Shown piece after piece: positions 1 to 37,621 of a stretch of 64,000 nt of DNA. The translations under genes and the position numbers were made by a program. The first letter of the stretch is position 1. Each line of letters begins with the position of its first letter. The notes below the pieces were generated by a model, which ran no database searches, was not told the origin of the DNA, and saw only the letters and a list, made by a program, of their open reading frames with translations. The stretch is from a bacterium (lineage in GTDB: Bacteria > Electryoneota > JAOADG01), in the NCBI GenBank assembly GCA_963681965.1, contig OY820579.1, forward strand, positions 544,001 through 608,000, read 5' to 3'.

Positions 1-245
1 CCTGCGCAGGTCGATTGAAACGATTGGTCGTATTCGACGGAACGACTGTCGGTTCAGTCGATTCCGATGTCGATATCGATACCGGTGATCAAATTGCCGT
101 GCAAGCACAATTCAATAACACAGCATTCACGATTACCGTACTGAAAAATTCGATCGCAACGTCACTCTCATTGCCGGAAATTGGCGGGTATCGTCCGATC
201 TGGGCAACGGTGCTGATCGAATTAACCGATCCGGTACTGATTTAG
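1..245 (+). CDS. 5'-truncated hypothetical protein, possibly phage-like structural
   Basis: Frame is open from the window edge (CAGRLKRLVVFDG...) to TAG at 243-245. The stop overlaps the AGGAGGA RBS of the next gene. Product not recognised. Confidence 0.5.
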   Translation, partial: CAGRLKRLVVFDGTTVGSVDSDVDIDTGDQIAVQAQFNNTAFTITVLKNSIATSLSLPEIGGYRPIWATVLIELTDPVLI

Positions 246-253
246 GAGGAACC

Positions 254-1096
254 ATGGCTTTTACAACGATCGATAAAATGCGGCTGCAACTGATCGGTCC
301 GACCGGAGCAGCGCGAAAAATTCTCAATGAACTCGTATTGATTGGGGATAATGGTGACGGTGTTTTGGCGAACAATCCGATCGAAGAGCATTCGGTTCAA
401 ATCAAGGGCATTACCACGAATCAAATCGATAGTGCCAGTGTGGTTTTGGACGATTCCAACTGGACGGTTTTCGCTCCGCAAAATGTTGTTCCAAATTCCG
501 TCGCAGTGGTAGATGGACCGCAACTGTACCGCTTCTATGCCGAGAATTCGGATTTTCTGATCGACTACCAATTGGGTCGAATCAAGCGCCCTTCAGGTTC
601 GAATATCACTACTGGACAGGGTGTCACGGTGTTCTATCAGTCGTACACATTTTACACCGAAAATGTCGATTACACGTTCGACTATAATCTTGGCACCTTC
701 AAGCTTGCAACTGGAGGAACAATTCTTTCGGGTCAATATGTTTGGGTCGATTACAATATCGCAGAATCCGGAGCTACCGATGCGTTATTGACGGAAGCAT
801 TGGAAGAAGCTCATGCGAAAATTGTCGCCCGGTTGTTGCCCGGATATTCGGAAATCTCTACCGATTCATTACTCGCTGTTGGTGAAACCGAACTAGCGTG
901 TGCAATCGCGGCACGGGCACTTGCCAGTAAACCGCTCGGTATCAGCCGCGATACTACCAGCGATGACCGCGCGAGTGCATGGTTGAAGCTCGCCGATCAA
1001 TTCGAGCGAGTAGCGTGGCAAACATTGCAGAAATTTATTTCCAAGCCGGCACGGAAATCGGGTTACGCTGTGAAAAGTGGCAGCGGAAGCTATTAA
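254..1096 (+). CDS. Putative phage head-tail adaptor (Mu gp36/DUF1320- or SPP1 gp15-like) with inserted duplicated beta module
   Basis: Strong RBS AGGAGGA at 244-250. N-terminal MAFTTIDKMR and helical C-terminus (DALLTEALEEAHAKIVARL...ELACAIAARAL...) resemble head-completion proteins. Two copies of Y-x-EN-x-D[FY]-x-[IF]DY-x-LG...G..I..GQ.V.V.Y lie between them. Confidence 0.5.
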   Translation: MAFTTIDKMRLQLIGPTGAARKILNELVLIGDNGDGVLANNPIEEHSVQIKGITTNQIDSASVVLDDSNWTVFAPQNVVPNSVAVVDGPQLYRFYAENSDFLIDYQLGRIKRPSGSNITTGQGVTVFYQSYTFYTENVDYTFDYNLGTFKLATGGTILSGQYVWVDYNIAESGATDALLTEALEEAHAKIVARLLPGYSEISTDSLLAVGETELACAIAARALASKPLGISRDTTSDDRASAWLKLADQFERVAWQTLQKFISKPARKSGYAVKSGSGSY

Positions 1097-1108
1097 TCCG
1101 TTCGATGA

Positions 1109-2296
1109 TTATCTAAGTAACGAGAGATAAGGCAAACACATTGCGATTACGACACACCATCCAACTTTTTTGGCAATCCGTTCCGGAAGTGACCAGAGCG
1201 ACCAGCAGACAGCCAGCACCAAAGCGGGTGCGGCGATCAGAAGTAGGCGCGCTTCGGTTTGATGATTCATGATCGCATTAATCAACCATGCGAGTATCCC
1301 GCACCCGCCACCGATACCCCACACCAGTAACACGCTGCGAGTCTGGACGTTAATACCGGAAAGAAATTTCGCGCGTTGATGCCATCCCCAGATAAGAGCA
1401 CCAAGGGAAGCGATAACGTAGATCAATCCGGGAAGCTTTACCCAGTAAGACGACCATGGTTCCTGCCACGGACAGACTAGCGAATAACAAAACGCTACTA
1501 CCGCTTGCCGGAAACCGATTGGAATCGGATTGCTAATTCCCAGGATGCTGTGATAAAAAGCCAATCGCTGTGCCCAAAGACTGTACGTGAGCACGAATAC
1601 TAAACCCGCAATTTGAAGCACCCGCACCCATTTGGTGAAGCGATTGTAAAAACCGCTCATCAGAATGGCGGAGAGTGGCATGATCCACAACACCACTGCC
1701 GGTAGTTTCGAATAGGCACCCAGTGCCATGATTGCGCCAAGCAGAACGAAATCGTGCCACTGAAATTTGCGACTGATCAGTAATGCCGAAAAACCGTATA
1801 ACAACGCGCACGAGACTGCCAACAACGCGTCGTTGTTAATCGTTGCCGATGCGGGAAGCGTCGCGCCGAGCAGACTTCCGACGGCAAGAATCGCGTCCCG
1901 CATCCGGGGTAACGGCACCGAGATGGACAGTATCCAAAGCGCCAAATACCAGAGCAGAAATGAAAACAGTCGGATGAAATATTCACCGTGATTCGTCGCG
2001 GTAAATACCTTCAGGATGGTTGCGGACAGTTGGTAATACAGGATCGGTTGCCAATATTCCGCGCTGCCGGTAATGAGGGTGGAATCGGAATACCGGTTGC
2101 GGTCCGGATGCGGTAACCCTTTCGCATCGCGCTGATAGAGCACATTGTTCCAATGTGAGAATTCGTCGTTGAATGCCGGGATGGATCCCGGCAGTGTCTG
2201 TAATGGCATGGCGAAGATCAACCAGAGCCGAAGTAGGATTCCGGCAATCAATGCAAACCAGACATATTTCGGTAAATGAAATGGAGTAACGTTCAT
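1109..2296 (-). CDS. Multi-TM GT-C fold glycosyltransferase-like membrane protein (GT39/DUF2142-like)
   Basis: About 10 TM helices with NDE.SH, EYWQP.LYY, NND and SKL motifs. Start moved to ATG 2296 because a terminator occupies 2353-2379. Confidence 0.65.
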   Translation of the reverse strand: MNVTPFHLPKYVWFALIAGILLRLWLIFAMPLQTLPGSIPAFNDEFSHWNNVLYQRDAKGLPHPDRNRYSDSTLITGSAEYWQPILYYQLSATILKVFTATNHGEYFIRLFSFLLWYLALWILSISVPLPRMRDAILAVGSLLGATLPASATINNDALLAVSCALLYGFSALLISRKFQWHDFVLLGAIMALGAYSKLPAVVLWIMPLSAILMSGFYNRFTKWVRVLQIAGLVFVLTYSLWAQRLAFYHSILGISNPIPIGFRQAVVAFCYSLVCPWQEPWSSYWVKLPGLIYVIASLGALIWGWHQRAKFLSGINVQTRSVLLVWGIGGGCGILAWLINAIMNHQTEARLLLIAAPALVLAVCWSLWSLPERIAKKVGWCVVIAMCLPYLSLLR

Positions 2297-2352
2297 GATC
2301 ACCCGATCGAAGATTGATCCGGATCCGTTCAATAACGAGTAAATATACTCAC

Positions 2353-2379
2353 AAAAAAAGGCGGATGAATCCATCCGCC
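2353..2379 (-). terminator. Rho-independent terminator
   Basis: GGCGGATG/CATCCGCC stem with an A7 tract on the + strand (U-tract on the - strand), just downstream of the 2406-3359 gene. Confidence 0.75.
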
Positions 2380-2405
2380 GAAATGAAAGTTCAGTTTATC
2401 TGTTG

Positions 2406-3359
2406 CTATTTGCTGCCCGGAACGATCGTACTAGTCTGAACAGTGTCCTGATTTGTTCGTGGAAGTTTACTGTAATCCAGTTCACTACCTCGCATGCTAT
2501 GAGGAATTAGATAGATGCCCGACATGATGATGGTCGCGGCTACAGCCCACCAGCGACCGCGTCGTTCGCCATCAGGTTTGCGTAGTTGCCAGACCGCCAA
2601 AACCCAAGCGAGAATCATCAATGCGGTTTTGTTATCGGTGAGATCTTCCCCAAATGGCCACCCGGTCCAGAACGCATCAAAGGCGTATTTCTGAACCAAT
2701 GGACCGAGAACAAATCCACCGACAATCAGTAAAATCGTAGTAATGAGGGTTTTGCGATAGACAGGTTCTTTCAGCAGCGCCCCAAGTAAAATTCGCATGG
2801 CAAAAAACAATCCGGTGAACATACATAAAATATGTGGTAACAGGACGAACGGAGGTACATCCCCTTTGAACCGAGTAACCACTGCACTACCGGTTTGGGG
2901 AAGCAGAACGCGTTCCGCACCCCGGTTCAACGCAACCTTGTATTCCAATTTTCCGGCGGCGGGTTGTTTCGGAAGATAGCCGATAAGTACCGACCGGGTC
3001 GATCCCGTCGATTTTCCGCGATTGCTTATGATAGTATGACCGATTCCCGATAATTTCCCAATCTGGTCGGCGGTGAGGGTTTCGCGCTGAAGTGGTAACA
3101 CTCGTAATGGCTCATCGAGCTTGTAGCGCTTCCAGATAACTTCGCCATGAATAGTTGTATCGCCGACATCAATCAATACTGGTTGATCGCCGGTCGTTTC
3201 ATGGGTTCGCAATAACGCGTAATGGATCGATTGCCCACCAAGGCTCGCTTCGCCATCCAAGGGATAAGTCGGACCGGTGCTGCGCTGATAGTGTGCAGAT
3301 AAAAAAGTTAATATAAGTGCCAATATCCACAATAAGATGGATCGGATCGTTTTCACCAC
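2406..3359 (-). CDS. Hypothetical membrane protein
   Basis: 317 aa ORF with an N-terminal TM, a soluble domain and four C-terminal TMs (TGPTYP, WTGWPFGEDLTDNK, IPHS motifs). Confidence 0.75.
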   Translation of the reverse strand: MVKTIRSILLWILALILTFLSAHYQRSTGPTYPLDGEASLGGQSIHYALLRTHETTGDQPVLIDVGDTTIHGEVIWKRYKLDEPLRVLPLQRETLTADQIGKLSGIGHTIISNRGKSTGSTRSVLIGYLPKQPAAGKLEYKVALNRGAERVLLPQTGSAVVTRFKGDVPPFVLLPHILCMFTGLFFAMRILLGALLKEPVYRKTLITTILLIVGGFVLGPLVQKYAFDAFWTGWPFGEDLTDNKTALMILAWVLAVWQLRKPDGERRGRWWAVAATIIMSGIYLIPHSMRGSELDYSKLPRTNQDTVQTSTIVPGSK

Positions 3360-3475
3360 ACCCCCGTTGTTGTCTGCTGATTATACGTAATTACTTGTTA
3401 AAAAATCAACTCCGGGGTGAGGAATTAATCGGTTTCAATCGAGAAGAACCAGCTTTTGTATGGAGGATCAGCTTT

Positions 3476-3787
3476 ATGAATTGGATCGATGAATTCGTTG
3501 ATGATTTGTTCGATACGAAAGAATTAACCGACGTCGCACTATTTGCCGAAGAACACGGATTGACTGTCGATGAGGTGAACAGTGTCGATGAAGGATTACT
3601 CTATAACAGTATGATGCGTCGGTTCAAGCGGGAAGCAACTCTGGCTATCCCGAAATTGGCGGAGGCGTTACTGGAAAAAGCGTACCGCGGCGATATCGCC
3701 GCGATTCGATTGGTTATTGCACTGGCAAAACCGGAAACCGTGAAAGGAAAAGGCGATGACCCGATGGAATCATTCCGCGAGTCCTAA
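3476..3787 (+). CDS. Putative terminase small subunit
   Basis: GGAGG RBS at 3462-3466 before ATG 3476. Small helical protein with AEALLEKAYRGDIAAIRL, a pattern typical of TerS. Overlaps the start of the large terminase. Confidence 0.6.
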   Translation: MNWIDEFVDDLFDTKELTDVALFAEEHGLTVDEVNSVDEGLLYNSMMRRFKREATLAIPKLAEALLEKAYRGDIAAIRLVIALAKPETVKGKGDDPMESFRES

Positions 3788-5149
3788 ACCGCATACATCT
3801 GCGATCAAACGGGAAATTGCCAGGCTTCGACAGGATCCTGCGCAATTTGCCGCCGACTACTGTTGGACCGACCACCCTAGTCTCGGGATCAGGCGGTTCC
3901 CCTCTTTCCCTATCTTGCCCGGCTCTTTTCGGCGCTCGAGACTGAGCCGCGGCTGCTAGTATTGAAAAGTCGTCAGGTAATGGCAAGTTGGTCGATTGCT
4001 GCTTGGTTGATTCATCGAGCGCTATTTTATTCGCCGGGCGATTTCATGATTCTTTCAAAAGAAGAACGTTCGGCGGAAGAATTATTGTTGCGGATCCGCC
4101 ATTTGATTGCGCGGCTACCGCGCTGGATGGGAATCCGATGTGCAATCAAACGACGAGAAATTGTTTTTGCGAAAATTGGAAGTCGAATATTTACTCTACC
4201 CGCCGTTCCAGAGGCGGTGCGGTTGTATACTCCTACAGTAGTGGTGTGGGATGAAATGGCGTTTACTCGCGAGGCGGAACGGATTTGGGAGGCGCTCTCG
4301 CCGGCACTCGATAGCAGCGCGCGATTTGTCGGAATCAGTACACCGAATGGTCGTTTTACCACGTTCGGTCGATTGGTTCAGAAACCCGATCAATTCGGCT
4401 TCTCATTGCACCGAATCCACTACCGCGAGCGTCCGGATCGCGGCGATGCATGGCGCACTGAAAAGCAAAAAGAGTTGTCCGAATCCGAATGGCGGCGGGA
4501 ATATGAATTGTCGCTGGAAGAAATTAATGGATTGCGCGTCATCGAAGAGTTTGTGCCCTCGGTACATATTGAATCTGCTCCACTTTCAAAGAAAGACGTA
4601 CTGCAGTCGCCCCGATTGTTTCGGTCGATTGATTACGGGTATCGGACACCAGTGGTTCTGTGGATTGCCGAACGGGCGGACAACCGATTGACTGTATTCG
4701 ATGAATGGATTGGTGACAATGCGACACGCGATGATTTGCTAGCGGCAATCCGGGCAATCGACCGGAAGTGGGGTATTTCCGATCGAAATATCGAATGGAC
4801 AGCCTGCGATCCTGCCGGTGCGCAACACGGTGACACCGGAATTCCGGTAGTGGATTTCCTTGCAGGTGCGGGAATCCGGCTGATGTTCCGAAAATCCCGG
4901 ATCGAAGATGGATTGGATATCGTCCGTACTTATTTTCGAAGAGCCGATGGGGGGAGTGTTTTAAAAGTATCTCCACTGTGTACAAAATTGATTCTCGATC
5001 TAGAATCGTACACCTACGACGAGCGAACCGGAAAGCCGATTAAAGGGAATTATGACCACACAATTGACGCACTACGATATTTTTGCTTAAGTTATATGGT
5101 TCCTACTCCAGCCAAACGAAAAGTGCGGGTCGCCGGATCAAAACGCTAA
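3756..5149 (+). CDS. Terminase large subunit, split by a -1 frameshift at about 3905-3911
   Basis: Walker A LKSRQVMAS, Walker B VVVWDE, coupling motif ISTPNG, and nuclease motifs SIDYG, CDPAG and DHTIDALRY. ORFs 3756-3959 and 3962-5149 join as ...GIRRFPSF/PYLARLFSALETEPRLLVLKSRQ. Confidence 0.88.
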
Positions 5150-5524
5150 TGAGAGGCGAGGAGCATTGGAAAGGAGCATGATAATAAATATCTTGTAACG
5201 CTACCAAGGAGTTTTTCAGGTCTCTGGACACCATAATACTTTCTAGCTCGATTTTTGGTCGGAAATTGTATTTCTGTCGCTGAGATCTGGAAAACGGATC
5301 CCTTCCTATCCGAACTGGATCCGCGGTAACTGCTTTCTCGTGATCGTTGGTTGATGCAATAGATGATCACGCTTTCGTTATTGGAAATATCACTCGGCTA
5401 GTTATCATTTAGATCAGATGATTACGGAATAATTAGGTGCGATCGGGTCACCGAAATAAACTGACAAGAACTCCCGGTTTATTACGTACCAATGTTACCC
5501 TTTACGAATACGACTAGAGGAAGA

Positions 5525-7063
5525 ATGAATACCGATAACCATGGAATACCACCAAACGGTTTCCGCTCAGTTGAAGAGGAGTACGAGCGACTGGGTAAGG
5601 ATGCCGAACGGCTGCGGTTGGATGGCAAACGCGATGCTCAACATGAGTTACATCGCGAAATGCTCGTTTTTGCTAAAAAAAACAATATCAAACGTCTGAT
5701 TGCAGAAGCTCATGGTTTGGTTGGTCGCGATGCGATGGAGGTCGGAGATTTTAAACTAGCGTTTTCCGAATTGAAAAAATCACTGGATTTATTGTACGAA
5801 TTTGACGATGCCGAGACTTTGGGTCGAACGCTTGGAAATTTGGCAAACCTGCTCCGGATTCAAGGATTGTTCGAAGAAGCAAAGAAGTATGGTCAAGATG
5901 CTTTGGTTCAAATCCGAAAGACCGACAACCGTCGCTATGAGATGGTGGTTCTCGGCAATCTCGCCTCGCAGGAAATTGAACGGGGCAATTTTGTCGAAGC
6001 AAGTCCGTTCTTGCTCGCAGCCTTGGAAATCGCTCAGAAGATTGGCGATGCCCACGCCGAGGTACTGTACTACGGTGAATTAGCGAAAATCCGTCATTCC
6101 GAAGGAAAAGTCGACGAAGCATTCGAAGTAATCGACAAAGCGATTGCGATTGCGAAGAAACACGATCTGCGCAGCGAAGAGGGAACGATTGTCCGCACTG
6201 CCGGTCTGATTGCCACTTCCGAAGCGCAATGGAAACGCGCCCGGATGTTGCTGGAGCAAGCGCTGGCAATTCACCGCGAAGCGAAAGCATTCCGGTTTGT
6301 TGGAATCACCCTGCATAATCTTGGATTGATTGCCTTGACGATGGGCGATGCCGATCTTGCCGAGCGTTACCTACAGGAAGCGATTGCGATTCATCGCAGT
6401 AGTGGAAACGTTCATTCCGAAGCGCTATCCATGTCGGTGCAAGCGGAACTCTCGTTCTGCCGTGGCGAACATGAAGCGGCACTGCAGAAATTGAACCGCG
6501 CGCTCCAGATATCGCACGACATCAAAGACCGCAGTTTTGAAGCGATGGCAAAGAGCTATATCGCATTTATATATATCGAACGAAAACGCTACAGCGAAGC
6601 CTTGACCAAACTGGAACAAGCCGTCGAAACGCAACGCGATACCCGCAATACCCGCGATTTGGCAATCTCTCTCTACCGGTTGTTAGTACTCTACCTCGAA
6701 TTGGGCGATCAGAAACAGGCAATCAATTGCCTGAAAGAAGCCGATGAAATTACTCAGAATAGTCGTGTGCAGATGGTTCAGATCCAGTCCGCAGTCGCAC
6801 ATGGATTACTCACGTTATTCTGGTACAAACAACAAAACGACGGTGTGGTCGTCAATCGCGAAGAACCGGTAACACTGGAAGCGGTAATCGATTATTATCT
6901 GAAAGCCAAACAGATTTTCGAAGAGAAAGAGATCGGTTCGACCAATTTGAGTGGTTACTTCTTGTTGCAGTTCCGCGATCGGATGATAAAGTCCGGAATT
7001 CCATTCGGTGAGTTACCACTACCAACTAACTGGATCGCACAAGATCGCGGCAGTACCCGATAA
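5525..7063 (+). CDS. Tetratricopeptide-repeat protein
   Basis: About 9-10 roughly 40-aa helical repeats (LGNLA..., ALAIHRE..., EA..L). ATG 5525 follows GAGGAAG. Confidence 0.85.
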   Translation: MNTDNHGIPPNGFRSVEEEYERLGKDAERLRLDGKRDAQHELHREMLVFAKKNNIKRLIAEAHGLVGRDAMEVGDFKLAFSELKKSLDLLYEFDDAETLGRTLGNLANLLRIQGLFEEAKKYGQDALVQIRKTDNRRYEMVVLGNLASQEIERGNFVEASPFLLAALEIAQKIGDAHAEVLYYGELAKIRHSEGKVDEAFEVIDKAIAIAKKHDLRSEEGTIVRTAGLIATSEAQWKRARMLLEQALAIHREAKAFRFVGITLHNLGLIALTMGDADLAERYLQEAIAIHRSSGNVHSEALSMSVQAELSFCRGEHEAALQKLNRALQISHDIKDRSFEAMAKSYIAFIYIERKRYSEALTKLEQAVETQRDTRNTRDLAISLYRLLVLYLELGDQKQAINCLKEADEITQNSRVQMVQIQSAVAHGLLTLFWYKQQNDGVVVNREEPVTLEAVIDYYLKAKQIFEEKEIGSTNLSGYFLLQFRDRMIKSGIPFGELPLPTNWIAQDRGSTR

Positions 7064-7186
7064 CGCGAACGGGTTAATTCACTTCGTCAATGCGACCGAT
7101 TGCGAAGTTGTCTTTCCAAACAATCTTCCTGGTTTTATAACTGTTCGCGATCGAACGAACTTCGTATCATGTTCAAAGAGGTGGTT

Positions 7187-7891
7187 ATGGTACGGATCAT
7201 TCCAGCACTGGATCGTCGCTTCGGCGATTTCGGCTGGCTCAAAACATACTGGTTATTTTCGTTCGATCGTTATCACGATCCCAATAATATGCATTTCGGT
7301 AACCTCCGCGTCTTTAACGACGATATCGTGCTGCCTAAATCGGGCTTCGGCACGCATCCACATCGCGAGATGGAAATCGTGACGATCGTCTTGAGTGGAA
7401 CAGTGACTCATGAAGACAGCATGGGGAATCGCACCGAAATAAAAGCCGGAGAAGTGCAGCGAATGACCGCCGGTACAGGAGTATCTCATTCCGAGCACAA
7501 CCTCGGTGCCGACCCACTCAATCTGTACCAAATTTGGTTTTTCCCCCGCGAACCCAATCTTAAACCTTCGTACGAACAGGCATCATTGCTTCCGGAAGCC
7601 CGCAAGAATAAATTGCAAGCAGTCGTTTCGGGTACCGACCCACACAGCTTGGTGAAGATTCATTCCGATGCGACAATTTATCTGTCCGATCTGACCGAAG
7701 GAAAAAAACTTTCGTATCCACTTTCATTCGGACGCGGCGCATTTGTATACATCACTTCCGGTGAGATCTCTGTCAATGGAACCACGTTACAATCCAAGGA
7801 TCAAGCGCGATTGGAAAACGAGACTTCGCTCGAGATCGTCGCGAATCAGTCATCCGAGTTCATTATAATCGATGTCGATCTGACGGTGTAA
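7187..7891 (+). CDS. Pirin family protein
   Basis: FG.LRVFNDD, GFGTHPHREMEI, HEDSMGN, MTAGTGVSHSE and QIWF motifs. GAGG RBS before ATG 7187. Confidence 0.93.
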   Translation: MVRIIPALDRRFGDFGWLKTYWLFSFDRYHDPNNMHFGNLRVFNDDIVLPKSGFGTHPHREMEIVTIVLSGTVTHEDSMGNRTEIKAGEVQRMTAGTGVSHSEHNLGADPLNLYQIWFFPREPNLKPSYEQASLLPEARKNKLQAVVSGTDPHSLVKIHSDATIYLSDLTEGKKLSYPLSFGRGAFVYITSGEISVNGTTLQSKDQARLENETSLEIVANQSSEFIIIDVDLTV

Positions 7892-7930
7892 CGGAACCAA
7901 CAATCCAAGTCAGGCAAAGAGGCTGCTGGC

Positions 7931-8455
7931 ATGTGGAATTTCGATTTCTCTGTATTGACGATTATCCTTCGCACGACGATTATCTATTGCGTGATTCTGC
8001 TTGGAATGCGGATATCCGGGAAGCGCGAACTCGGTCAGATGACACCGATCGACCTCGTATTGATCCTGCTCATCTCGAATGCGGTACAAAATGCGATGAC
8101 TGGTCCGGACACGTCCGTTACCGGCGGGATTATCGCAGCCGCAACACTGCTAATATTGAATTGGGTTACCAATCGGTTGATTCAGAAAGACCGCTCGTTG
8201 CGCAAATTACTCGAGGGCACGCCAACGATTCTGGTTCACAATGGTAAACTGATTCACAAGAATTTGCTATCCGAGAAGATTTCTTCCGAAACCTTGAATC
8301 AAGCATTTCGCGAACACGGTGTCACGAATATTTCCGATATACATCTTGCAACGCTGGAAATTGACGGCTCGATCAGCGTCATCCGGATCGATGAATTACC
8401 GGCTCAACTCAAACCGCATCACAATTTCCGGTTCATCGAAAAGAAGAATAGCTGA
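7931..8455 (+). CDS. DUF421/YetF membrane protein
   Basis: GKRELGQMT..D, three TMs, EG.PTILV.NG and LE.DG.ISV motifs. Confidence 0.9.
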   Translation: MWNFDFSVLTIILRTTIIYCVILLGMRISGKRELGQMTPIDLVLILLISNAVQNAMTGPDTSVTGGIIAAATLLILNWVTNRLIQKDRSLRKLLEGTPTILVHNGKLIHKNLLSEKISSETLNQAFREHGVTNISDIHLATLEIDGSISVIRIDELPAQLKPHHNFRFIEKKNS

Positions 8456-8583
8456 CTTACCGCGATCAACTTACCGAAATAGAATTTTTTATCACTTGAA
8501 CTAACTGAACCCCGTTTCTTCTGCTAACGAATACGCTCGTCGGAGCGTTTTCCACTCATCCTCCGAATCCGAAAGGAATCGTC

Positions 8584-9873
8584 ATGAATCACATCTCCTC
8601 TGCGCGATGCGAATCGCGTGTTTCCGGTATTTCGCCTCGGTTACGAGAGTACCGGTTACGGCAATCTACTAACAATCCTCCCGATCAAATTGCACCCGGC
8701 GATGGTTCTTCGCTTTCCTCGACGTACACCGCAGTGGAATCCGCTCAACCGATGTCGGCGTCGTTGTTGGACGGATTTCTTTACACCGGTGGTAATCGCG
8801 CGGATTTCTATCGTTATTTGCGCGACCGCTTGCCGATCGTATCCGCCGGAATTTGGTCGTGGGTACATCTTTGCGCGACACCACTGGAACGTCATTTCGA
8901 TGGACCCGCTCACGCCGTGCGGGAAGCGGAACAGATTCTCGCTGCGCTGGAACGTCGATTGCAGCCGTATCCCGGGCGATTGGCGCTTGACCGACTCACC
9001 GAAGCGTTATTCTGGGAGTTGTTCACGCTCGGTCGCTGTGCCGCTGAAATTGTGCCATTACCCGATCTGAGCGGTTTATCGGCGATCCGGTTTATCGATC
9101 CGTATCGCGTTCGCATCGGCAAGAATCAGGAAAAATTCTACCTCGATGACGATCGAAAATTGATTCCAGTCGTACCCGACCGGTTCTTCTATGCGGTGTT
9201 GCAGCACGATCCGGCGCAACCGGCGGGGATCGATCCGCTTGCCACCTTGCCGTTCGTACTTGCCATCGAAAAGCAGTTGCTCGAAGATATGGCGTGTTCC
9301 AGTCACAATGTCGGTTCGCCGCGAATGCAGGTGAAGATCACACCACCGCTGCGCGAGCCGAGTGAATCTGCCGACGAATATGAAAACCGCGCCGGGAAGT
9401 ATTTCGACGATACGGTCAGTGGTTTTGCGAAACTCGATCCCGACGACAATCTCTTCACTTGGAACGACGTTGAAGTGACGATTATTGGCGGTGAAGGGCG
9501 TCAAACGTCGCAGTGGCGAATCAGTCGTCAGGAAGTCGTCGAGGATGTTGTGACGGGTCTAAAGCTGTTTCCGTGGGTTCTCGGTCGCAGTCACGGCACC
9601 ACCAAGAATTGGGTCGAGGCGCAATTCAATTTGCTGATGCACATCGTCAATTCGCTGCAACTCCGCGGACTGCAACTTGCCGAACGGATTGCGAATACCG
9701 AACTCGCGCTGCGCGGCAATCCCGCCCGGGTCGCTTTCGCATATACTCCACATCCCGATCCCTTTGCGTTGCAACGCGAACAGGCATTTTCGCTGAAAAC
9801 CAATACGCTGCTGACGCTGGTCGATCGTGGCTACCTCACGAAAGATGAGGTCATGGGGAAACTGAAATTGTAA
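8584..9873 (+). CDS. Phage portal-like protein
   Basis: RBS AAAGGA. LFTLGRCAAEIV...RFIDPYRV, P.GIDPL, GLK..PWVLGRS..TT.N and terminal LVDRGYLTKDEV match portal-family patterns. Lies directly upstream of a prohead protease. Confidence 0.7.
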   Translation: MNHISSARCESRVSGISPRLREYRLRQSTNNPPDQIAPGDGSSLSSTYTAVESAQPMSASLLDGFLYTGGNRADFYRYLRDRLPIVSAGIWSWVHLCATPLERHFDGPAHAVREAEQILAALERRLQPYPGRLALDRLTEALFWELFTLGRCAAEIVPLPDLSGLSAIRFIDPYRVRIGKNQEKFYLDDDRKLIPVVPDRFFYAVLQHDPAQPAGIDPLATLPFVLAIEKQLLEDMACSSHNVGSPRMQVKITPPLREPSESADEYENRAGKYFDDTVSGFAKLDPDDNLFTWNDVEVTIIGGEGRQTSQWRISRQEVVEDVVTGLKLFPWVLGRSHGTTKNWVEAQFNLLMHIVNSLQLRGLQLAERIANTELALRGNPARVAFAYTPHPDPFALQREQAFSLKTNTLLTLVDRGYLTKDEVMGKLKL

Positions 9874-9926
9874 CGAACTGTAGCATTAGTTCATACTATC
9901 AACGATTATCTCATCGACTCTGAAGA

Positions 9927-10646
9927 ATGGAGTACAATATGTTGGAGCAAACACTCATTGGAGTACCCGATCCGATTGTTGTGGAACCGGAATCGGAAGC
10001 ATCGGAAACGGATTTAGCAACCATTCATGCGCTCAAGAATCCGCCACTGGAACCGTTGACACTGGACGCAATTTATGTGCGTCGCTGTCGTCTTGCCGGA
10101 GATGTTCTCGATTCGAAAGGGGGGTGTTTCCGCACCGAGGATTTACCGCGGTTGCTGGAAATGGTGCAGGGTGCGCCGGCACTGATCGGGCATGATCGAA
10201 GTCAAAAGCCGACGGCACGATTTTTCGGCGGCTCGATCGAAGAACACGACGGACACCGTTACATCGTTCCGAAATTCTATTGGTTGAAGGCGCATAGTCA
10301 TGCCGAAGATCTCCGGCTGGAAATCGATGGCGGGTTGATCAACGAAGCGTCGATCGCATTCTTGTTTACGACACCGACTTGCTCGATATGCGGTGGCGAT
10401 ATCCGCGACTGCGAACATCAGGTGGGAGAGCAGTATAATGGATGCGATTGTTTTTATTACTACGATGGCATCGATATGGTCACGGAAGGATCGTTGGTCT
10501 ATCGCGGTGCCGAACCTGGTACGGCGCTGCTGCCAAATCAATTGTCGGTGCGACCGTTTTTGCTGCCGGTAAAGAACAGTACCGAACCACTCCCGAAAAT
10601 CCGTTATCGCGGGAAGTTGTGGCGGATCCTTCCCGATCGCGAATAA
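9927..10646 (+). CDS. Phage prohead (maturation) protease-like protein with Zn-ribbon insert
   Basis: D..G..F...L..L motif, LIGHD (putative catalytic His), IDGG..NEASIAF (putative catalytic Ser), CSICG....C.H..G..Y...C and EGSLVY.GA.P. Confidence 0.72.
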   Translation: MEYNMLEQTLIGVPDPIVVEPESEASETDLATIHALKNPPLEPLTLDAIYVRRCRLAGDVLDSKGGCFRTEDLPRLLEMVQGAPALIGHDRSQKPTARFFGGSIEEHDGHRYIVPKFYWLKAHSHAEDLRLEIDGGLINEASIAFLFTTPTCSICGGDIRDCEHQVGEQYNGCDCFYYYDGIDMVTEGSLVYRGAEPGTALLPNQLSVRPFLLPVKNSTEPLPKIRYRGKLWRILPDRE

Positions 10647-10665
10647 TCAGCGCGTACTTCTTTAA

Positions 10666-11308
10666 GTAGGGGCGGGTCCCCGCGCCCGCCCGTTCTAACA
10701 TCTTTTCGTTTTTTTGGTGGCGCAGGCCTCCGAGCCTGCGTCTGGTATCTTGTATCTTGATTTGTCGTTGCGAGGAACGCAGCGAAGGAACATCCGCCGT
10801 AGGCGGATAGCCGTAGCGAAGTGACGAAGCAATCTTCAGGTATCTTGTATCCTGATTCGTCGTTGCGAAGCCGCCATCGGCGGCTGTGGCAACCGGCTCT
10901 TGTGTAGCCGCAGGCTTCAGCCTGCGTTTTTTCTTGAATCTTGTATTCTGTAGTAGGGGCGCCTCCCTGCGGGCGCCCGTTCTTGTATCTTTTTATCTTG
11001 AATCTTGTTTCCTGTATCCTGATCTGTCGTTGCGAACGAAGCGCGTTCTGCGCGCGTAGTGTGGCAACCTTCGCCTTTTTTCCGTAGGGGCATATGGCAT
11101 ACGCCCCACGGCGGTGCCGTTAGCACCGCACGCGGTTCGTTCGCGAACGAACCTTACAGAAAAAGAAAGACGGCCCTAAAGGGCCATCTCCGAAAAAACA
11201 GGTGTTAGGGGGTAGGTGCTGGGAATTGGGAACGGAAAAAAGATACAGGAACGGGCGGACACGGTGGTCCGCCCCTACTGGCGGGAGGGCTCACGAGCCC
11301 TCCCCTAC
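10666..11308. repeat. Mosaic REP-like palindrome array (about 11 elements)
   Basis: GTAG/GTGG-led hairpins at 10666, 10717, 10904, 10953 and 11084. GTCGTTGCGA...GCAA[TC]C elements at 10764, 10859 and 11026. Reverse-oriented ...TAC hairpins at about 11133, 11253 and 11283. Spacers are T-rich (TCTTGTATC-like). Confidence 0.88.
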
Positions 11309-14104
11309 TTCAATAACACAATTTTCTGCGTCTTCGTAAACGCACCCGCTTGCATCCGCAAGAAGTATGTCCCCGATGAAAACTGCTTCCCATCGAATGT
11401 TATGCGGTAAGCTCCAGCTGCCTGCTTGCAGTTTACTAGTGTAGCTACAGCTCTCCCTAGTAAATCGTAGAGTATAAGTTCAACAGTACTAGCTCGGGGA
11501 ATCGAGTATGACAAAGTAGTTATTGAATTGAATGGATTCGGGTAATTCTGACAAAGTTGAAAATGATCTGGTGAACGGGTGTAATTGGCTCAATAACCGT
11601 TTCGGGAATCGTTAGTCTCGAAATGAAACAATCATTGGATCCGCCAGAATATGCAGTATCGTATGTATCTGAAGTTATAGGAAAGATCGTACTGGATGTA
11701 TAACCAGATAAGAAAATATTATTATCTGATTCATAAAATAAAGCAGTACTTCTATCATACCCAGCTCCCCCAAAAAATGAACTATATGATAATTCAGACC
11801 GATAAAGATTCATTTTTGAGATAAAACAATCGTTATTACCATTAAAAGACAGATCAAATCCGTCTGAAGTTACTGGAAAATTAATACTATTTGCGACTCC
11901 AGTGATGATAATATTTCCACTACCGATATAATTAATAGCTGCACCCCAACAACTTCCAGAATCTCCTCCCAAGTAAGTACTTTAAAGTAGTTGCGAACCA
12001 ATCGGATTCAACCAAGCGATAAAACAATTTCCATGTCCATTATTTATTGAATCAAAAGCGGTATGAGTAATTGGAAAATCATTACTACTAGTAGAGCCAG
12101 TGACAATAACTTCGCCGCTATCAACAAGAGCAACTCCTAATCCTGCATCGATCGATGAACCACCGAGGAAAGTGCTGTAAAGAAGCTGGGAGCCGGAGTC
12201 ATTGAGATGAACTACATATGCATCAGCAAGTGGATTGCTATTAAACGAGGTGTCAAATGCTCCCGGTGTAGTAGGAAATGTGGCTCCGCAACCACCTGTG
12301 ATAAATGACCCGCCATTACCATCGCTGATGATACATCTTCCATCGCCTGGTCCAAGAAGTGTACTGAAAATTAATTGAGAGCCAGTACTATTTAGACGCG
12401 AGACAAAACAATCGGAATAAGTACCACTAAAAGTAGTATCGAATACTCCCGATGTAGTTGGAAAATTACTGCTTTGAGTATATCCAGTTAAGAAAGCTCC
12501 GCCTGATCCATCGCTCGATATTGAACGCGATTGCTGTTGATTGGAACCACCTAGTAAATCGGAAAAGAATAATCGATTTCCAGAATTGCTCAATTTGACG
12601 ACAAAACAGGCTAATGAGCCACCGGCTCCAAATACGTATGAAAGTGGGAAGTAATTACTACTCGTTTAGCCGGCAAATAAATACCCATTCGAATCGGCTT
12701 TAGTGATGCTTTCACCATAATCATCATTCTCGCCACCGATGAACGTGCTGAATACTAACTGTGAAAGTGAGCTATTCATCTTCGTTACGAAACAGTCGTA
12801 GAATCCATTTGCTCCACTATTAAAAGTCGAATCGAAACTGCCGGCAGTGGTCGGAAAATTGCTGCTTCGGGTACTTCCGCCGATGACTACTCCACCATCG
12901 ACGTCAACACTCATTCCTGAAGCACAACCATCATCGGCGCCTCCTCCCAGATACGTTGAATACACCAGTGGATCTATTCTTAGTGTATGTGAGTTATCGT
13001 ACCCATTCGGCAAATCGATCGCGAAGACATTCCCTGACACGAGTGAGAATTGTGCCGTGACTTCGTTTCTGCGGGTACCATTGGATGTGGTTTGGTAAGC
13101 TCCTGGAATCGACATCCGCAATTCGCCGAGGGAAGTCATCAGTGACAGTATGTCGGAATTTATTCCGACTCCATCTAGAGTCTTGATTTGTCGTTGCGAG
13201 GAACGCAGGGCGCGACCTTGTGCGCCCGAAGAGACGAAGCAATCTTCAGGTATCTTTTCCGTAGGGGCGTATGGCATACGCCCCGCGGGCGCATCCGCGC
13301 CCGTTGCGGTGCGTTCACGAACGCACCCTACATAAGACAGATCTTCAGTCAACCCCTCGCACACCATCTTGATTTGTTTCGGGTCGGCACCGGGATGTAC
13401 TACGAAATCGAATTCGAGATGACCTTTGCTCTCATACCATTCAACATCGATGCCCTGCCAAACATCGTGATGCACCACGCGAGAGAAATTCCGGCAATCC
13501 GGTGCCCATTTGGACGAGTCATTCCCAAGGAAATAATTGTTGTGCCACGAAAATTCCCCTTGTGCACCAATCCATTTTGCGCAAGAGTAATTTCGTAGGT
13601 CGGAATTTATTCCGACATCCTCTTGTGTCGTGCATTTATCCGTAGGGGCGAATGCGATTCGCCCCTACGGGAGTCGACAAATTTGAATTTGAGCGCGTGG
13701 GATTTTAATGGAAAGGATTCATGATCAGGGCGTATGCCATACGCCCCTACGGCGGCAACGTCGTTGCCGCTTGCGGGCGGGCGTGGGAGCCCGCCCCTAC
13801 TGGAAAAAGGATCGGTGCGTTCGCGAACCGCCCCTACAAAAGATGAGGAATCGATTACCGAGGTGACGAGGGTGACACCATCCCGCTCAAGGAACCACGT
13901 GAAGCCATCGCAGCGCACCTCGCATTTGTAGAGGACGGCAGAATCCCATTGCCCCTTGTTCTCGGTGAATTGGAACGGGTGTGGCAGGCGCGTCGATTGT
14001 ACGCTGACGGCGGGTACATTGCGATACAGGGTGAGCAGGGCAATAGCCATTGCAAACAGGAGCGGTGGCGCGATTTTGGTAAATATACCATAGCGAAATC
14101 TCAC
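11305..14104 (-). pseudogene. Disrupted SBBP-repeat (beta-propeller) secreted protein with T9SS C-terminal sorting domain; paralog of 34420-37476
   Basis: GGAGG + GTG at 14104. Contains FTENKGQW, LRIDPLVYSTYLGG, repeated T.S.NFPTT.GAFD, then NYPNPFN...YDLLGR...SGTYF...KIVLLK. Broken by frameshifts near 13640 and 11580 and in-frame TAA codons at 12666-12668 and 11982-11984. Confidence 0.85.
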
Positions 14105-14188
14105 AGCACCTCCGGTCAACTTTGCGAATAGGATCTTAATATGATTGCATGCTTCTAAATAATACTATGGATCGCGAAGTAAAACAAT

Positions 14189-16536: not shown

Positions 16537-16725
16537 AAAAAAATGATTTTTAAATCCATGAGAAAAGTGTTGCAGGGTTTCTGTTAGTATAGTAGATTTC
16601 ATTCTAAAGTCTATCTGCACACACTTCTTGGTTAAAGTAACTGGCAATCGGAACGACCCATACTTCTCTTCATGACAGCTAACTTTCATTAGCAGGAATA
16701 TACTTTGCGTTTAGGAGATAAATGT

Positions 16726-18228
16726 ATGTATCGGATGTTAATTTCAATCATCGCATTACTTGTTGCCTCCACCATGAGTATTGCGCAATTGACTATTGTT
16801 TCAACATCACCGTCCAACGGTGCAGTGAATGTTTCTTCACAAACTTCTCTTGAAATCACATTTTCAGCACCATTAGATACATCAATTCGATATTCGTCGG
16901 GATGTCCGATCGCGATCTTACTCTCTGGTCCAACTCTTACAAATCCCAATTTAACATACTCGATGAGTACAGATCTCAGAACGATCCGATTTCCACTTAC
17001 AATTCCGGTGAATACTGATTGTGGATTCATTATTTTTAATGCGCAATCGACAACAAGACAAGGGATGAGTCATCTCTACGCATCGAATTTTACGAGTATG
17101 AGCAGTTTTGGAATTTATAATATCTCTGGTTCAATAAGTTATCCAGAAGGGAATCCTGTCAACTCGTTCGTAGCTTTGTTTCAATCCGGAAGTGACAATC
17201 CAATTTTATTCGGAGTATGCAGTCCCGGACAAGCAACATATACAATAAATGGATTGAGGGGTGGTGGACAACATTATGCCCTTGTCGCAGGACTAGATTT
17301 AAATGGAGACGGTGAGTTAAATAATGATCCCGGCGGTTGGTATGATACAAATAACGATGGTGAACCCGATGAAATAATCGTTGATAATGTCAATGTCTCC
17401 AATATTAATATCACGTTACATCTTGAATTGCCGATTACTGCCCTCGAGCGAATTGCAGCAGTCCGAGCCTATATTGCTTCGATCGATCCCAATGCAACAA
17501 TCAAGGGACATTGGGGAGATGATGATGCAAATCTTCCAACCGGTAGAAGTTATACATGGCAATTCCGAGTACTGTCTCCACTGTTAGATAGTATGTTAGA
17601 GCTAAGAGTAAATTCTTATCAAATTCGTCGAAGTACGAGCAATCCGACTGAGCCTGGAATCGGGTATGGTCTTGATTTTCCGCTGAGCGGTATCGATAGT
17701 GATAGTGCATTCCGAGTTGCTGAAAGAAATGGTGGAGCACAATTACGCAATGCCTACCCAACAACCCATGTTGTCATGACTTCTAAAACTGATTACGATG
17801 ACCCGGAAAATCCGATTTTAACTTGGCACGTCTGTTACAATACGGAATCATCGCAATTTAATTATGTTCTCCGGATTGATATTGATGTGATATCCGGAGC
17901 GGTTAGACAAATTCTGTGGAATCCCGATCGGGGTGTTGACGATCAGAAGATCTTTTCTACTCCAGATTTTTGTTCACTGAATGGCTGTTATCCGAACCCA
18001 TTCAATGCGACCACTGAAATCAAATACACGATTGCAAAGACAAGTAATGTCGATTTGCGACTGTTCGATGTGACAGGACGAGAAGTAGCGAAGTTAATCA
18101 ACTTCGATCAACATCCCGGTAGCTACACCTATCGATTAAACGGAAGCGTGCTGGCAAGCGGCACGTACTTCGTTCGGTTGCAGACCGGTTCGACTAATCA
18201 GACTCAAAAAATCATTTTACTCCGATAA
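16726..18228 (+). CDS. Secreted Ig-like (Big_5-type) protein with T9SS C-terminal sorting domain
   Basis: AGGAGA RBS and signal peptide. STSPSNGAVNV...ITFSAPLD, DLNGDG and DTNNDG Ca-binding-like loops, and YPNPFN.TT.I.Y...FDVTGREV...SGTYF. Confidence 0.85.
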   Translation: MYRMLISIIALLVASTMSIAQLTIVSTSPSNGAVNVSSQTSLEITFSAPLDTSIRYSSGCPIAILLSGPTLTNPNLTYSMSTDLRTIRFPLTIPVNTDCGFIIFNAQSTTRQGMSHLYASNFTSMSSFGIYNISGSISYPEGNPVNSFVALFQSGSDNPILFGVCSPGQATYTINGLRGGGQHYALVAGLDLNGDGELNNDPGGWYDTNNDGEPDEIIVDNVNVSNINITLHLELPITALERIAAVRAYIASIDPNATIKGHWGDDDANLPTGRSYTWQFRVLSPLLDSMLELRVNSYQIRRSTSNPTEPGIGYGLDFPLSGIDSDSAFRVAERNGGAQLRNAYPTTHVVMTSKTDYDDPENPILTWHVCYNTESSQFNYVLRIDIDVISGAVRQILWNPDRGVDDQKIFSTPDFCSLNGCYPNPFNATTEIKYTIAKTSNVDLRLFDVTGREVAKLINFDQHPGSYTYRLNGSVLASGTYFVRLQTGSTNQTQKIILLR

Positions 18229-18577: not shown

Positions 18578-20272
18578 ATGATATACACAAGAATAGCTTC
18601 CGGACTTGATTTCATCGATGCAGAATTCGGCGGCATCTACGCCAACCGAACCTACTACCTTCGTGGTCCTGCACGTTCCGGTCGCACGACAATCGGTCTC
18701 CAGTTTCTGCTCGCCGGACTCGAAAACGGCGAAAACAGCATTCTGATCTCCAGCGACCGGATCGAAGACGTGATCCTGAAGTCGGAAACGATCGGTTTGA
18801 CGCTGGAACAATATCTGGTGGAAAATCGCCTGATCCTGATGGAATATCCCAAGGAAATTCAAAATGGGCACTATCAGTTGGGTGGCGTGATCCATCTCCT
18901 CGGCGAGATCGAGAAATATATCAAGACGTACAATTGCACCCGAATCGTATTCGATACCCTGATGCCCTTATTACTAAAGGCACGGGATGCACAAGTCGCC
19001 AATTATGTTTACTCCTTAATGAATGCAATCGAAGCGCTTTCCTGCACCGCCTTCGTGACAACCGGCGAACCGAATAGCCCCCAGGCGGGTCGGATTGCCG
19101 AATTGATCGAAGATGCCGCTGCCGGCGTGTTCTCGACTTCGGCGGTTTCAATGAAGGATAGTCAACAGCGGATGTTCTGGGTGCACAAGATGGTCAATCC
19201 GATGACCCCGCCGACTCCTTATAAGACCAAGTTCGAATATGGTACCGGTGTCGTACAGGACCTCGGCGAGCGCGCTCCCGATATCCGCCGACCGAATACG
19301 GTCGAACAAGTAACCGGTCCGGTGAGCATTAACGACCTACCGATGCGAATAGCTGTGATCGATGGCGAAGAAGATGTCGTCGCGCAGTTCGAAGAGATCT
19401 TCCCGAAAGCACAACAGGTCGACGATTACAGTACCGATAGCGAATTTATTCGCGGTCACCGGGATGTTGGTTACGACGTGTTGGTCGTGAATGCATCTTC
19501 GGTCGTGAATTGGTTTCTAGCGGTACACCAGATCCGCGAACGCAACGAGAAGTTGCCGATTCTGATTGTTTCCGAACAATTAACGGCACAATTGAGTTAT
19601 CAATCTGCGAAACTTGCCGGTGCCGACGCATTGTTCATGCACCCGTTGGTGAAGGGCGATGTCGTCCGTGCCTTGGAAAAAGCGCTGAAGAACTACAACA
19701 CCTATCAGGAAATTGCCAGTCGGCTCGCAACTCGCACACAGCTATCCAATCTTCCCGAGGATTTCGGGTCGCTCCTGAACACCGTGATGGAATCGGACTT
19801 GGGTGGAAAGCAAGGCGATACACTGATTAGCGTTGGCGATTTCAAAGAGAAACTCCACGAGCAGATTTGGCGCAGCAGCCAAAAGCAATTGACGTTCGCA
19901 GTCGTGTCCTTCCGAATGATCAATACCGGCGAAATATCAAAACTTCAGAACCTGCCCCGCGGCTTGGAATTGGTCAAGCGTATGGCAGGGATTGTCGGAA
20001 ATGCGATGCGCGGATTGAACGATAGCGCCTGTCGCAGTATGGACAAGATTGTGGTTCTCTTGGAGAATTGCGATCGCGAAGGTGCCGATGCATTTGTCGC
20101 TCGGGTCACTGCCGATGTGAAAACGGAATTGGGCGACAAACTCGGTGTTCAATTGGGTCGTCATCTGGTCATTTCAAAAGCGATGGCGATGTATCCCGAA
20201 GATGCCGACAATGTTCAGGATTTGCTGTCCCGGGTAACCGAAACCACCCGTAATTTCAAGTTAATTCACTAA
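18578..20272 (+). CDS. RecA/KaiC-like ATPase* - receiver* - degenerate GGDEF* protein (BcsE-like architecture)
   Basis: SGLDFID..FGG, variant Walker A GPARSGRT and RIVFDTL. REC-like IAVIDGE...YDVLVVN...PILIVS...AGAD. GGDEF-like R.LNDSACRSMDKIVVLL..CD.EGA...AMYPEDA. Confidence 0.8.
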   Translation: MIYTRIASGLDFIDAEFGGIYANRTYYLRGPARSGRTTIGLQFLLAGLENGENSILISSDRIEDVILKSETIGLTLEQYLVENRLILMEYPKEIQNGHYQLGGVIHLLGEIEKYIKTYNCTRIVFDTLMPLLLKARDAQVANYVYSLMNAIEALSCTAFVTTGEPNSPQAGRIAELIEDAAAGVFSTSAVSMKDSQQRMFWVHKMVNPMTPPTPYKTKFEYGTGVVQDLGERAPDIRRPNTVEQVTGPVSINDLPMRIAVIDGEEDVVAQFEEIFPKAQQVDDYSTDSEFIRGHRDVGYDVLVVNASSVVNWFLAVHQIRERNEKLPILIVSEQLTAQLSYQSAKLAGADALFMHPLVKGDVVRALEKALKNYNTYQEIASRLATRTQLSNLPEDFGSLLNTVMESDLGGKQGDTLISVGDFKEKLHEQIWRSSQKQLTFAVVSFRMINTGEISKLQNLPRGLELVKRMAGIVGNAMRGLNDSACRSMDKIVVLLENCDREGADAFVARVTADVKTELGDKLGVQLGRHLVISKAMAMYPEDADNVQDLLSRVTETTRNFKLIH

Positions 20273-37476: not shown

Positions 37477-37621
37477 CGCTGCACCTCTGGCATAAGGCAA
37501 GTAGGGATCTTAGAAAATAATATAATCAATATTCTTAAATATTCTGACTATTGTCCAACCCTCTTCAATCTTGCCGTGAGAACTATTGTATGTGGCGCAA
37601 AAATAAGTGATATATCGAGGT

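Follow-up and report, generated by a model that had tools for sequence, protein, structure and literature searches.

Analysis of a 64,000-nucleotide stretch of an Electryoneota genome (positions 544001-608000 of contig OY820579.1, assembly GCA_963681965.1; hereafter the window, and G000 for the genome, a single contig of 4.24 Mb) led us to conclude that three plus-strand loci carrying phage-type head and packaging genes are likely fragments of one ancient, chromosomally fixed, phage-derived head and DNA-packaging module. Mapping of hidden Markov models (HMMs) onto stretches from 23 genomes of the phylum yielded a seven-gene order consisting of the cement-like protein B145, the major capsid protein (MCP), the protein D126, the head-to-tail adaptor E280, the large terminase subunit (TerL), the portal protein and the protease G239. 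Families f1 to f8 have these genes in common order, with a variant in f5 as the exception. For 12 of the 23 genomes the stretch retrieved contained the complete set, the contigs or stretches of the remainder ending earlier. The sequences thus describe an ancient, vertically inherited and tailless head-and-packaging module, which very probably acts as a functional domesticated capsid and packaging machine. Regarding its role, we rank a particle resembling gene-transfer agents (GTAs), yet tailless, first, and propose intercellular DNA transfer tentatively; tail piracy and a role inside the cell or in defence are still considered as alternatives.

A first-pass annotation of this DNA had described three dispersed loci split by ordinary host genes and had considered the split a GTA-like trait. 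The description holds for G000, where a glyoxalase-like gene, two membrane-protein genes and genes encoding TPR, pirin and DUF421 proteins are inserted, but not as an ancestral or defining state, as the module is contiguous in relatives. In eight genomes (G005, G009, G020, G004, G014, G035, G039 and G006) it is free of inserts and spans 6.8-8.1 kb, while genes for type IX secretion system (T9SS) cargo are inserted in G008 and G018, and TerL and portal are separated by 15 kb in G013 and by 39 kb in G007. Because the module is compact in many relatives and interrupted differently elsewhere, a contiguous cluster appears to be the ancestral state and dispersal a secondary, lineage-specific change in the lineage of G000 and some others; the inserted host, tRNA and T9SS-cargo genes indicate that splitting took place independently in several lineages. 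Inserted genes of the relatives were also considered as parts of the module, a candidacy that was rejected, since they share only T9SS C-terminal sorting domains and were therefore taken as ordinary host cargo genes. In family f2, tRNA genes are found between MCP and D126 of otherwise compact modules (Ile-GAT in G009, L019 11384-11464; Val-CAC in G014, L104 4966-5047). The f5 variant (G007 L106, G029 L118) shows the rearranged order MCP-D126-B145-E280...TerL, in which B145 has moved and all genes are intact, and the portal gene of this family lies tens of kilobases away or on a different contig.

A capsid gene, reported as absent in the first pass together with the proposal to look for an HK97-fold capsid elsewhere in the genome, was found just outside the window. 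The MCP gene is located at genome positions 542185-543258, 0.7-1.8 kb upstream of the window (phrog_3922, 6.2e-44), and PF05065 detected no further HK97-type capsid in G000. It is preceded by the gene for the 145-residue B145 (genome 541694-542131; phrog_4588, 'virion structural protein', 2.1e-8). Beyond a glyoxalase-like host gene on the minus strand follows D126, a protein of 126 residues whose gene starts at genome position 543865, 135 bases ahead of the window, and whose C-terminal 80 codons occupy window positions 1-245 (plus strand). D126 is situated between MCP and adaptor in each family sampled, and its best score in the Atlas search (0.88) was to an unnamed cluster. In one relative (G033:C85:43104-44153), the MCP match holds a single in-frame TGA, for which a pseudogene, a sequencing error or recoding are possible explanations.

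The distribution of the module argues for long residence in the phylum. In a set of 41 genomes, MCP was detected in 39, TerL in 37 and the portal in 36, covering seven families with 39-87% identity to the window proteins and, apart from split or fragment matches, one place per genome. Patchiness among close relatives, which the first-pass annotation had named as a potential objection, was not observed: MCP was present in eight families and in 48 of the 52 phylum genomes with a completeness of 90% or higher, and two of the four negative genomes (G023 and G050) keep the portal on short contigs. A concatenated tree of MCP, TerL, portal, E280 and B145 (22 genomes, 1642 columns) recovered each family with at least two members as monophyletic with a support of 100 in the Shimodaira-Hasegawa-like approximate likelihood ratio test (SH-aLRT) and required seven label changes, the minimum possible. 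A typA tree of 28 genomes, which left out G032 and G026, required six changes against a minimum of four and hence performed worse than the module tree. The module tree agrees with taxonomy at the level of families, the labels being those of the database taxonomy and not of a multi-marker species tree. Across families, identity to G000 amounted to 50-59% for MCP and 63-77% for typA; for comparison, average amino-acid identities among the classes of the phylum range from under 46% up to 57.5% according to PMC10439189.

Ratios of non-synonymous to synonymous substitution rates (dN/dS, NG86 method) for the pair G005-G028 ranged from 0.07 to 0.24 across the seven genes, compared with 0.07 for typA; these values, far below 1, are rough upper bounds only, as dS is at least 0.9 and saturated, and the second pair, G035-G039, was partly incomputable. 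The data indicate purifying selection on all seven genes and vertical inheritance since about the base of this candidate phylum of the Fibrobacterota-Chlorobiota-Bacteroidota (FCB) group. Source names of close MCP homologues were Calditrichota, Ca. Electryonea clarkiae, KSB1 and LCP-89, which points to the FCB candidate phylum Electryoneota/AABM5-125-24 as that of the window, and the nearest bacterial MCP cluster in the Atlas is mostly labelled Zixibacteria. A profile search with the adaptor alignment against 1.84 billion representatives returned 731 matches at E <= 1e-3, 134 of which reached E <= 1e-30. A large group of full-length adaptor homologues of 269-270 residues is equidistant (26-34%) from each Electryoneota family studied here, and among ten members looked up one carried a source name, 'candidate division Zixibacteria bacterium'; P0176, of this adaptor-like group, matched no viral contig. 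Given the Zixibacteria labels of these adaptor homologues and of the related MCP cluster, the module may predate the phylum.

It is very improbable that the module represents an inert prophage remnant in decay or stems from repeated infection of the phylum by a mobile phage or satellite. Such an origin would be in line with the phage derivation of the genes, with the interrupting host genes and frameshifted TerL of G000, and with a copy of the module (L023, 52% identity) that IMG/VR lists among its viral contigs. However, the seven open reading frames (ORFs) are intact over eight families with dN far below dS, the module tree mirrors taxonomy, the composition is host-like, and the frameshift discussed below is conserved in two genera with both frames constrained. 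The phage relatives point in the same direction: IMG/VR contained 148 MCP relatives, of which 80 were fetched, and apart from L023 these are at most 38% identical and arranged in the canonical order TerL-portal-G239-(B145)-MCP, of which the order in the phylum is therefore a circular permutation. In the MCP tree, in which long branches meet at the join between phylum and phages, the 23 phylum sequences were set apart as one clade (100 SH-aLRT) from 30 IMG/VR MCPs, the stem measuring 0.82 substitutions per site. Because the phylum's MCPs form a single long-stem clade separate from those of phages, the module appears to have been acquired once. Module genes also cause false 'provirus' calls, as exemplified by L023.

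G000 itself contains a built-in mobile contrast, a complete myovirus-type prophage outside the window (~2.510-2.557 Mb; L153-L155) with its own terminase, portal, sheath, tape measure, baseplate, amidase and serine recombinase genes, and the head module behaves oppositely. The sheath and tape-measure matches of G000 are found solely in this prophage, whose sheath occurs in 8 of 52 genomes (in multiple copies in G035). Between G000 and G003, which represent different genera, sheath identity reaches 96%, compared with 79% for MCP. A BLAST comparison of all ORFs from 79 phage contigs with all G000 ORFs revealed no structural genes beyond those of the module and this prophage. Module genes contain 2.36 CGATCG motifs per kb, compared with 1.21 in the G000 genome and 0.04 in the prophage, and the 4-mer correlation of the module with the genome is 0.896 (mean of random windows 0.897); the CGATCG enrichment and the typical tetranucleotide correlation bear out the earlier view of a module ameliorated to its host.

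Screening of the ORFs in window positions 1-14000 with Pfam, PHROGs and NCBIfam also agreed with the first pass in that none of the ORFs tested in 1-10646 matched integrase, replication, repressor or tail families. Tested ORFs beside the G000 module matched no integrase or replication families either, no tRNA is found within 20 kb of it, and the search for an integrase or attachment site outside the window consequently gave neither an integrase nor a tRNA-type attachment signature on these ORFs. On the stretches of 22 genomes, no conserved tail gene adjoins the module, although divergent tail genes may be present elsewhere in the genome. Ribosome-binding sites (RBSs), described as clear in the first pass, could be recognized as Shine-Dalgarno-like sequences ahead of most module genes in the window, but none was evident ahead of G239 and none precedes the main frame of TerL. 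A motif shared upstream of the first module gene was not found in 21 genomes, which have Shine-Dalgarno sequences only.

TerL was assigned to the plus-strand frame at 3962-5149 (phrog_2, 3.6e-25), which comprises the ATPase and nuclease domains. Its single-sequence Pfam score for Terminase_6N (19.5) is under the cut-off of 22, and the TerL profile matched the ATPase of T4 gp17 (3.6e-20) and the TerL of the thermophilic phage G20c (3e-9). In 19 orthologues, KSRQ, WDEMAF and the nuclease residues D282, D341, D423, H424 and D427 (G002 numbering) are invariant, KSRQ presumably being a deviant Walker A motif with the lysine moved upstream. Judged by these sequences, the protein is a large terminase of the T4 gp17-like/Terminase_6 type with a predicted ATPase and an RNase H-like nuclease. 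While the phrog_2, gp17 and G20c matches uphold the original TerL call, the gene is not the single clean ORF that had been annotated, because the conserved N-terminal ~50 residues are encoded in another frame (3756-3959, plus strand).

This upstream ORF of G000, which is read in the +1 frame with respect to the TerL main frame, begins with an ATG behind a good RBS and continues for 16 codons beyond a candidate -1 frameshift site, T_TTC_CCT (3905-3911, plus strand). The first possible start codon of the main frame, in contrast, coincides with the Walker A motif and lacks an RBS. If ribosomes slipped by -1 at T_TTC_CCT, the two frames would be joined and the orthologous sequence ...FPSFPYLARLF... 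restored exactly. The same codons make up the site in G000 and G001 (T_TTC_CCT) and in G003 (G_TTC_CCT), as well as in L156, a contig near-identical to G001 and the only informative locus added by a metagenome scan, with orthologous arrangements at ~2640-2700 of G003 L113, ~1430-1500 of G001 L006 and ~5900-6020 of L156; in G002 and every other family, TerL is in frame. The upstream frame shows a dN of 0.45-0.62 versus a dS of at least 1.07. Public contigs from three runs of two studies cross the shift site without an indel, although two of these runs are possibly the assembly's own source. Analysis of the RNA 3' of the site, for which three sequences were available, gave z values of -1.07, -2.66 and -0.01 and one pair with a compensatory change, and hence no convincing stimulatory structure. 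We regard a programmed -1 frameshift in the TerL genes of genera g1 and g3 as probable and a split TerL as less likely; if true, a conserved frameshift would be an unusual case of recoding for a terminase gene. In part of family f6 (G018:C8, G022:C17, G034:C19, G038:C11), the TerL match is divided in two although the frame, of 493-561 residues, stays open throughout, which implies that a few dozen residues are inserted behind the initial ~140 of the ATPase.

The small ORF ahead of TerL (3476-3787, plus strand) had been annotated as the small terminase subunit (TerS). Apart from borderline similarity to phrog_21726 (E 0.0037), a PHROG without assigned function, it yielded no family match. Conservation of its C-terminal sequence extends to G003 and G001/L156, so that the ORF is kept within the family of the window only, and no BLAST match was obtained in eight other relatives. 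TerL directly follows the adaptor gene in the compact modules of f2 and f3, and family f6 has another small ORF ahead of TerL with a weak DUF5681 match. Since the TerS-like ORF is confined to the family of the window and the adaptor abuts TerL in f2 and f3, most of the phylum appears to have no TerS-like gene beside TerL. Such an arrangement hints at non-specific DNA handling and is one of the observations that fit an intracellular or defensive role, in which capsid and terminase would cut or sequester phage or host DNA (abortive infection, decoy) or form a DNA-holding compartment without any export. The invariant nuclease and ATPase residues of TerL and the lack of lysis or delivery genes linked to the module would be compatible with this idea as well. 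We nevertheless consider it improbable, as the full maturation set of protease, cement-like protein and adaptor exceeds the needs of DNA cleavage, and we know of no defence system that uses a complete head module. A GTA-like tailless particle remains our preferred reading.

The adaptor E280 (254-1096, plus strand) gave weak repeat-type matches only in the family libraries and no Pfam match, and was assigned on the basis of its AlphaFold2 (AF2) model, which reached a predicted local distance difference test (pLDDT) score of 93.8. A helix at residues 6-13 and helices at 176-258 form a helical core, into which a beta domain (~19-170) with DYxxDYxxG repeats is inserted. A structure search of 48,161 representative PDB chains resulted in seven matches with Z scores of at least 8, six of which are titled phage neck, connector or head-tail proteins: the phiCD508 neck (9.7), T4 gp13/14 (9.2), the Carin 1 tail/connector (8.7), the Mu neck (8.6), the P74-26 neck (8.3) and HK97 gp6 (8.1). 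The remaining match was to the cyanophage A4 portal-tail complex (8.7), and a chain of the RcGTA virion scored 6.0. As Z scores below ~8, and for helical folds below ~13, are common in such searches, the reading leans on the consistency of the match list and on gene position, the E280 gene being located downstream of MCP as is the case for gp6-like adaptors. We conclude from the model that E280 is a gp6-like head-tail adaptor (HK97 gp6/SPP1 gp15 class) with predicted docking to the portal, which is in accordance with the first-pass call of a head-tail adaptor-like protein. The beta domain resembled a tail protein of YSD1 (Z 7.3), SprA (Z 7.0) and a domain of the phi812 baseplate protein; against PDB sequences, the adaptor profiles retrieved only the SprA repeat (0.008-0.11). 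On six phage contigs, weak matches to the E280 HMM were detected on an ORF of 120-135 residues directly after MCP. Far larger proteins, such as P0194 (830 residues) and P0214 (1275 residues), contain the DYxxDYxxG beta repeat as well; among them, one consists of an adaptor-like protein followed by many immunoglobulin-like repeats and another of eight copies of the repeat.

Retention of a highly conserved adaptor fold, which in tailed phages receives neck and tail, raises the question of tail piracy. According to this scenario, the module would be an immobilised relative of capsid-forming satellites, namely the capsid-forming phage-inducible chromosomal islands (cf-PICIs), which would build and fill heads of its own, close them with the adaptor, and depend for infectivity on docking of these heads onto the tails of co-resident or infecting phages. 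The gene set of MCP, portal, protease, TerL and adaptor without a tail equals that of the capsid-forming satellites, and tailed prophages occur in the phylum. On the other hand, no integrase, replication or helper-sensing gene was detected with the module, which is near-universal, single-copy and vertical; the patchiness of candidate helper prophages (8 of 52 genomes) implies that a compatible tail would usually be absent, and the large inserted beta domain was not seen in the matched gp6-like structures. On balance, tail piracy is rather unlikely, and we retain the GTA-like tailless particle as the preferred interpretation.

The portal gene at 8584-9873 (plus strand) was recovered as annotated (phrog_3753, 7e-28), with relatives of 45-75% identity in 36 of 41 genomes. 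In G008, a duplicated piece of 80 residues from the portal C-terminus (L016 3015-3257) was found ~3 kb from the intact portal gene. G239 (9927-10646, plus strand) matched only a PHROG of unknown function and no Pfam family, and its profiles gave nothing useful against PDB sequences, while its model (pLDDT 84.1) places it among capsid maturation proteases of the T4 gp21/HK97/assemblin fold, with a conserved CxxC...CxH cluster C-terminal to it. The best fold match was T4 gp21 (Z 9.7 over 136 residues; root-mean-square deviation 3.5), followed by 36 herpesvirus assemblin entries with Z 5.4-8.6 and a drop to unrelated folds at Z <= 5.0. Six residues are invariant in 24 sequences (H89, S142, C152, C155, C162 and H164), of which H89 and S142 are the candidate catalytic histidine and serine. 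One of 24 family members matches Peptidase_S78_2 (4.7e-5), and homologues in phage contigs are placed between portal and MCP. The model thus favours the prohead protease proposed in the first pass.

Based on these assignments, we propose that MCP, portal and protease would form a procapsid, which would be matured by the protease and stabilized as a capsid by the cement protein. TerL, in most families without a recognisable TerS, would cut DNA and pump it through the portal, most probably host DNA by a headful mechanism, and the adaptor, probably together with the 126-residue protein, would seal the portal vertex. Such an assembly would give rise to a capsid filled with DNA but devoid of a tail, i.e. 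a GTA-like 'viriform' without a delivery device of its own. As a speculative extension, which we put forward with considerable reserve, the module could represent a new class of viriforms: a host-owned, tailless DNA-packaging capsid as old as the phylum, which moves or stores chromosomal DNA without an injection device and whose terminase dosage is set in one family by a programmed -1 frameshift.

Several points weigh against a functional, GTA-like particle. To our knowledge, all described GTAs are tailed and known from few lineages, and lysis, regulator and delivery genes were not found linked to the module. Function is read from conservation, which is qualified by the saturated dS and by the restriction of the tree comparison to family labels mentioned above. 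Two genomes, G026 (97% complete) and G041 (94%), have neither MCP nor portal, which suggests that the module is dispensable. The frameshift in G000 TerL could instead signify reduced or lost terminase function in that lineage. Three of the assignments are also affected: 3476-3787 is possibly TerS by position alone; B145 is weakly suggested to be cement-like by two of 26 family members that match PF09956 Phage_cement_2 (0.0038), its profile having returned nothing useful against PDB sequences; and D126 has no match to a Pfam, PHROG or NCBIfam family. If the interpretation as a functional particle is correct, bacteria are able to domesticate just one half of a phage, capsid plus terminase, and to keep it throughout the history of a phylum, and the FCB group would join the lineages with such elements. 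The question then arises as to the purpose of a tailless DNA-filled capsid, for which export, storage, defence and tail piracy come into consideration. The compact clusters of 6.8-8 kb are small enough for heterologous expression.

The genes inserted into the G000 module lie outside the ancestral gene set. Two membrane-protein genes (1109-2374 and 2406-3359, minus strand) have no counterparts in the compact modules of relatives; the former, previously called a GT-C gene, matched no family in Pfam, PHROGs or NCBIfam, so that this call could not be confirmed, and the latter showed a weak Acyl_transf_3 match (0.0033). Between TerL and portal, family matches corroborated the TPR (5492-7063), pirin (7100-7891) and YetF/DUF421 (7931-8455) genes, all on the plus strand, as ordinary host genes, and these are absent from this position in compact relatives. 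The repetitive extragenic palindromic (REP)-like array noted 3' of the protease was likewise recovered as GC-rich hairpins with TCTTGTATC-type motifs at ~10660-11320. It belongs to a genome-wide repeat element outside the module: TCTTGTATC/TGTATCCTG hairpin arrays are also present at window positions ~58680-58876, a 9-mer of the element occurs in 183 copies in G000 versus ~32 expected, in at least 16 clusters, and contig depth is raised at the repeat. A HIP1/cyanobacterial origin was considered and dropped, as GCGATCGC is enriched only 4-fold. Further along the window, T9SS C-terminal sorting domains or DUF7948/SBBP repeats (16705-18228, 34420-37500 and 11982-14119), which fit a host of the FCB group, and a KaiC-like ATPase (18578-20272) were noted.

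Our literature search, which covered articles without their supplementary files and some of them in part, found no report of this module and no GTA report for this FCB candidate phylum. The terms phage, capsid, terminase, GTA and virus have zero occurrences in PMC9324843, and the phage terms searched are absent from the part of PMC10439189 available to us. A related idea for another domain of life is contained in PMC6563490, where GTA-like domesticated head-tail elements are speculated upon for Thaumarchaeota.

The closest relatives in gene content are the head modules of tailed prophages (IMG/VR L024-L102), which contain homologous MCP, portal, protease, cement-like and TerL genes with HMM E-values from ~1e-5 to 1e-96, the weakest matches being mainly those of portal and cement-like proteins, with one portal at 4e-4. 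They differ from the module in their MCPs, which are at most 38% identical and separate from the clade formed by the phylum, and in their order TerL-portal-protease-(cement)-MCP; their protease or protease-scaffold genes are long in some cases, with up to 922 codons, and tail genes, e.g. a tape measure in L027, are found on some of the contigs.

With GTAs such as the RcGTA-type viriforms of Alphaproteobacteria, BaGTA and VSH-1, the module shares phage-derived genes that are chromosomally fixed, vertical over a large clade, ameliorated, under purifying selection and without integration or replication genes, as well as an HK97-class capsid, portal, prohead protease, TerL and gp6-like adaptor. 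In contrast to GTAs, it has only seven genes, without conserved tail, tape measure, baseplate or fibre genes, in an order permuted relative to phages; it spans a whole FCB candidate phylum, and it is known here from its genes alone, with gene transfer as a prediction. Because it has no conserved tail, the module fits no known GTA architecture. Of the first-pass proposal, the long-resident, ameliorated and host-integrated head and packaging system is thus supported by distribution, tree, dN/dS, capsid gene and the lack of a detectable integrase, whereas the GTA architecture is not.

Capsid-forming PICIs carry MCP, portal, protease, terminase and head-tail connectors without tail genes, and this head-only set with its own terminase and connector is also found in the module. 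These islands are mobile and patchy, however, and possess an integrase, attachment sites, replication genes and helper regulation, none of which was detected with the vertically inherited module. Encapsulins are host-owned HK97-fold shells of phage-capsid origin and resemble the module in this respect. Unlike encapsulins, which have no portal, terminase, protease or adaptor and load protein cargo, the module retains portal, TerL, protease and adaptor and thereby the full DNA-packaging apparatus.

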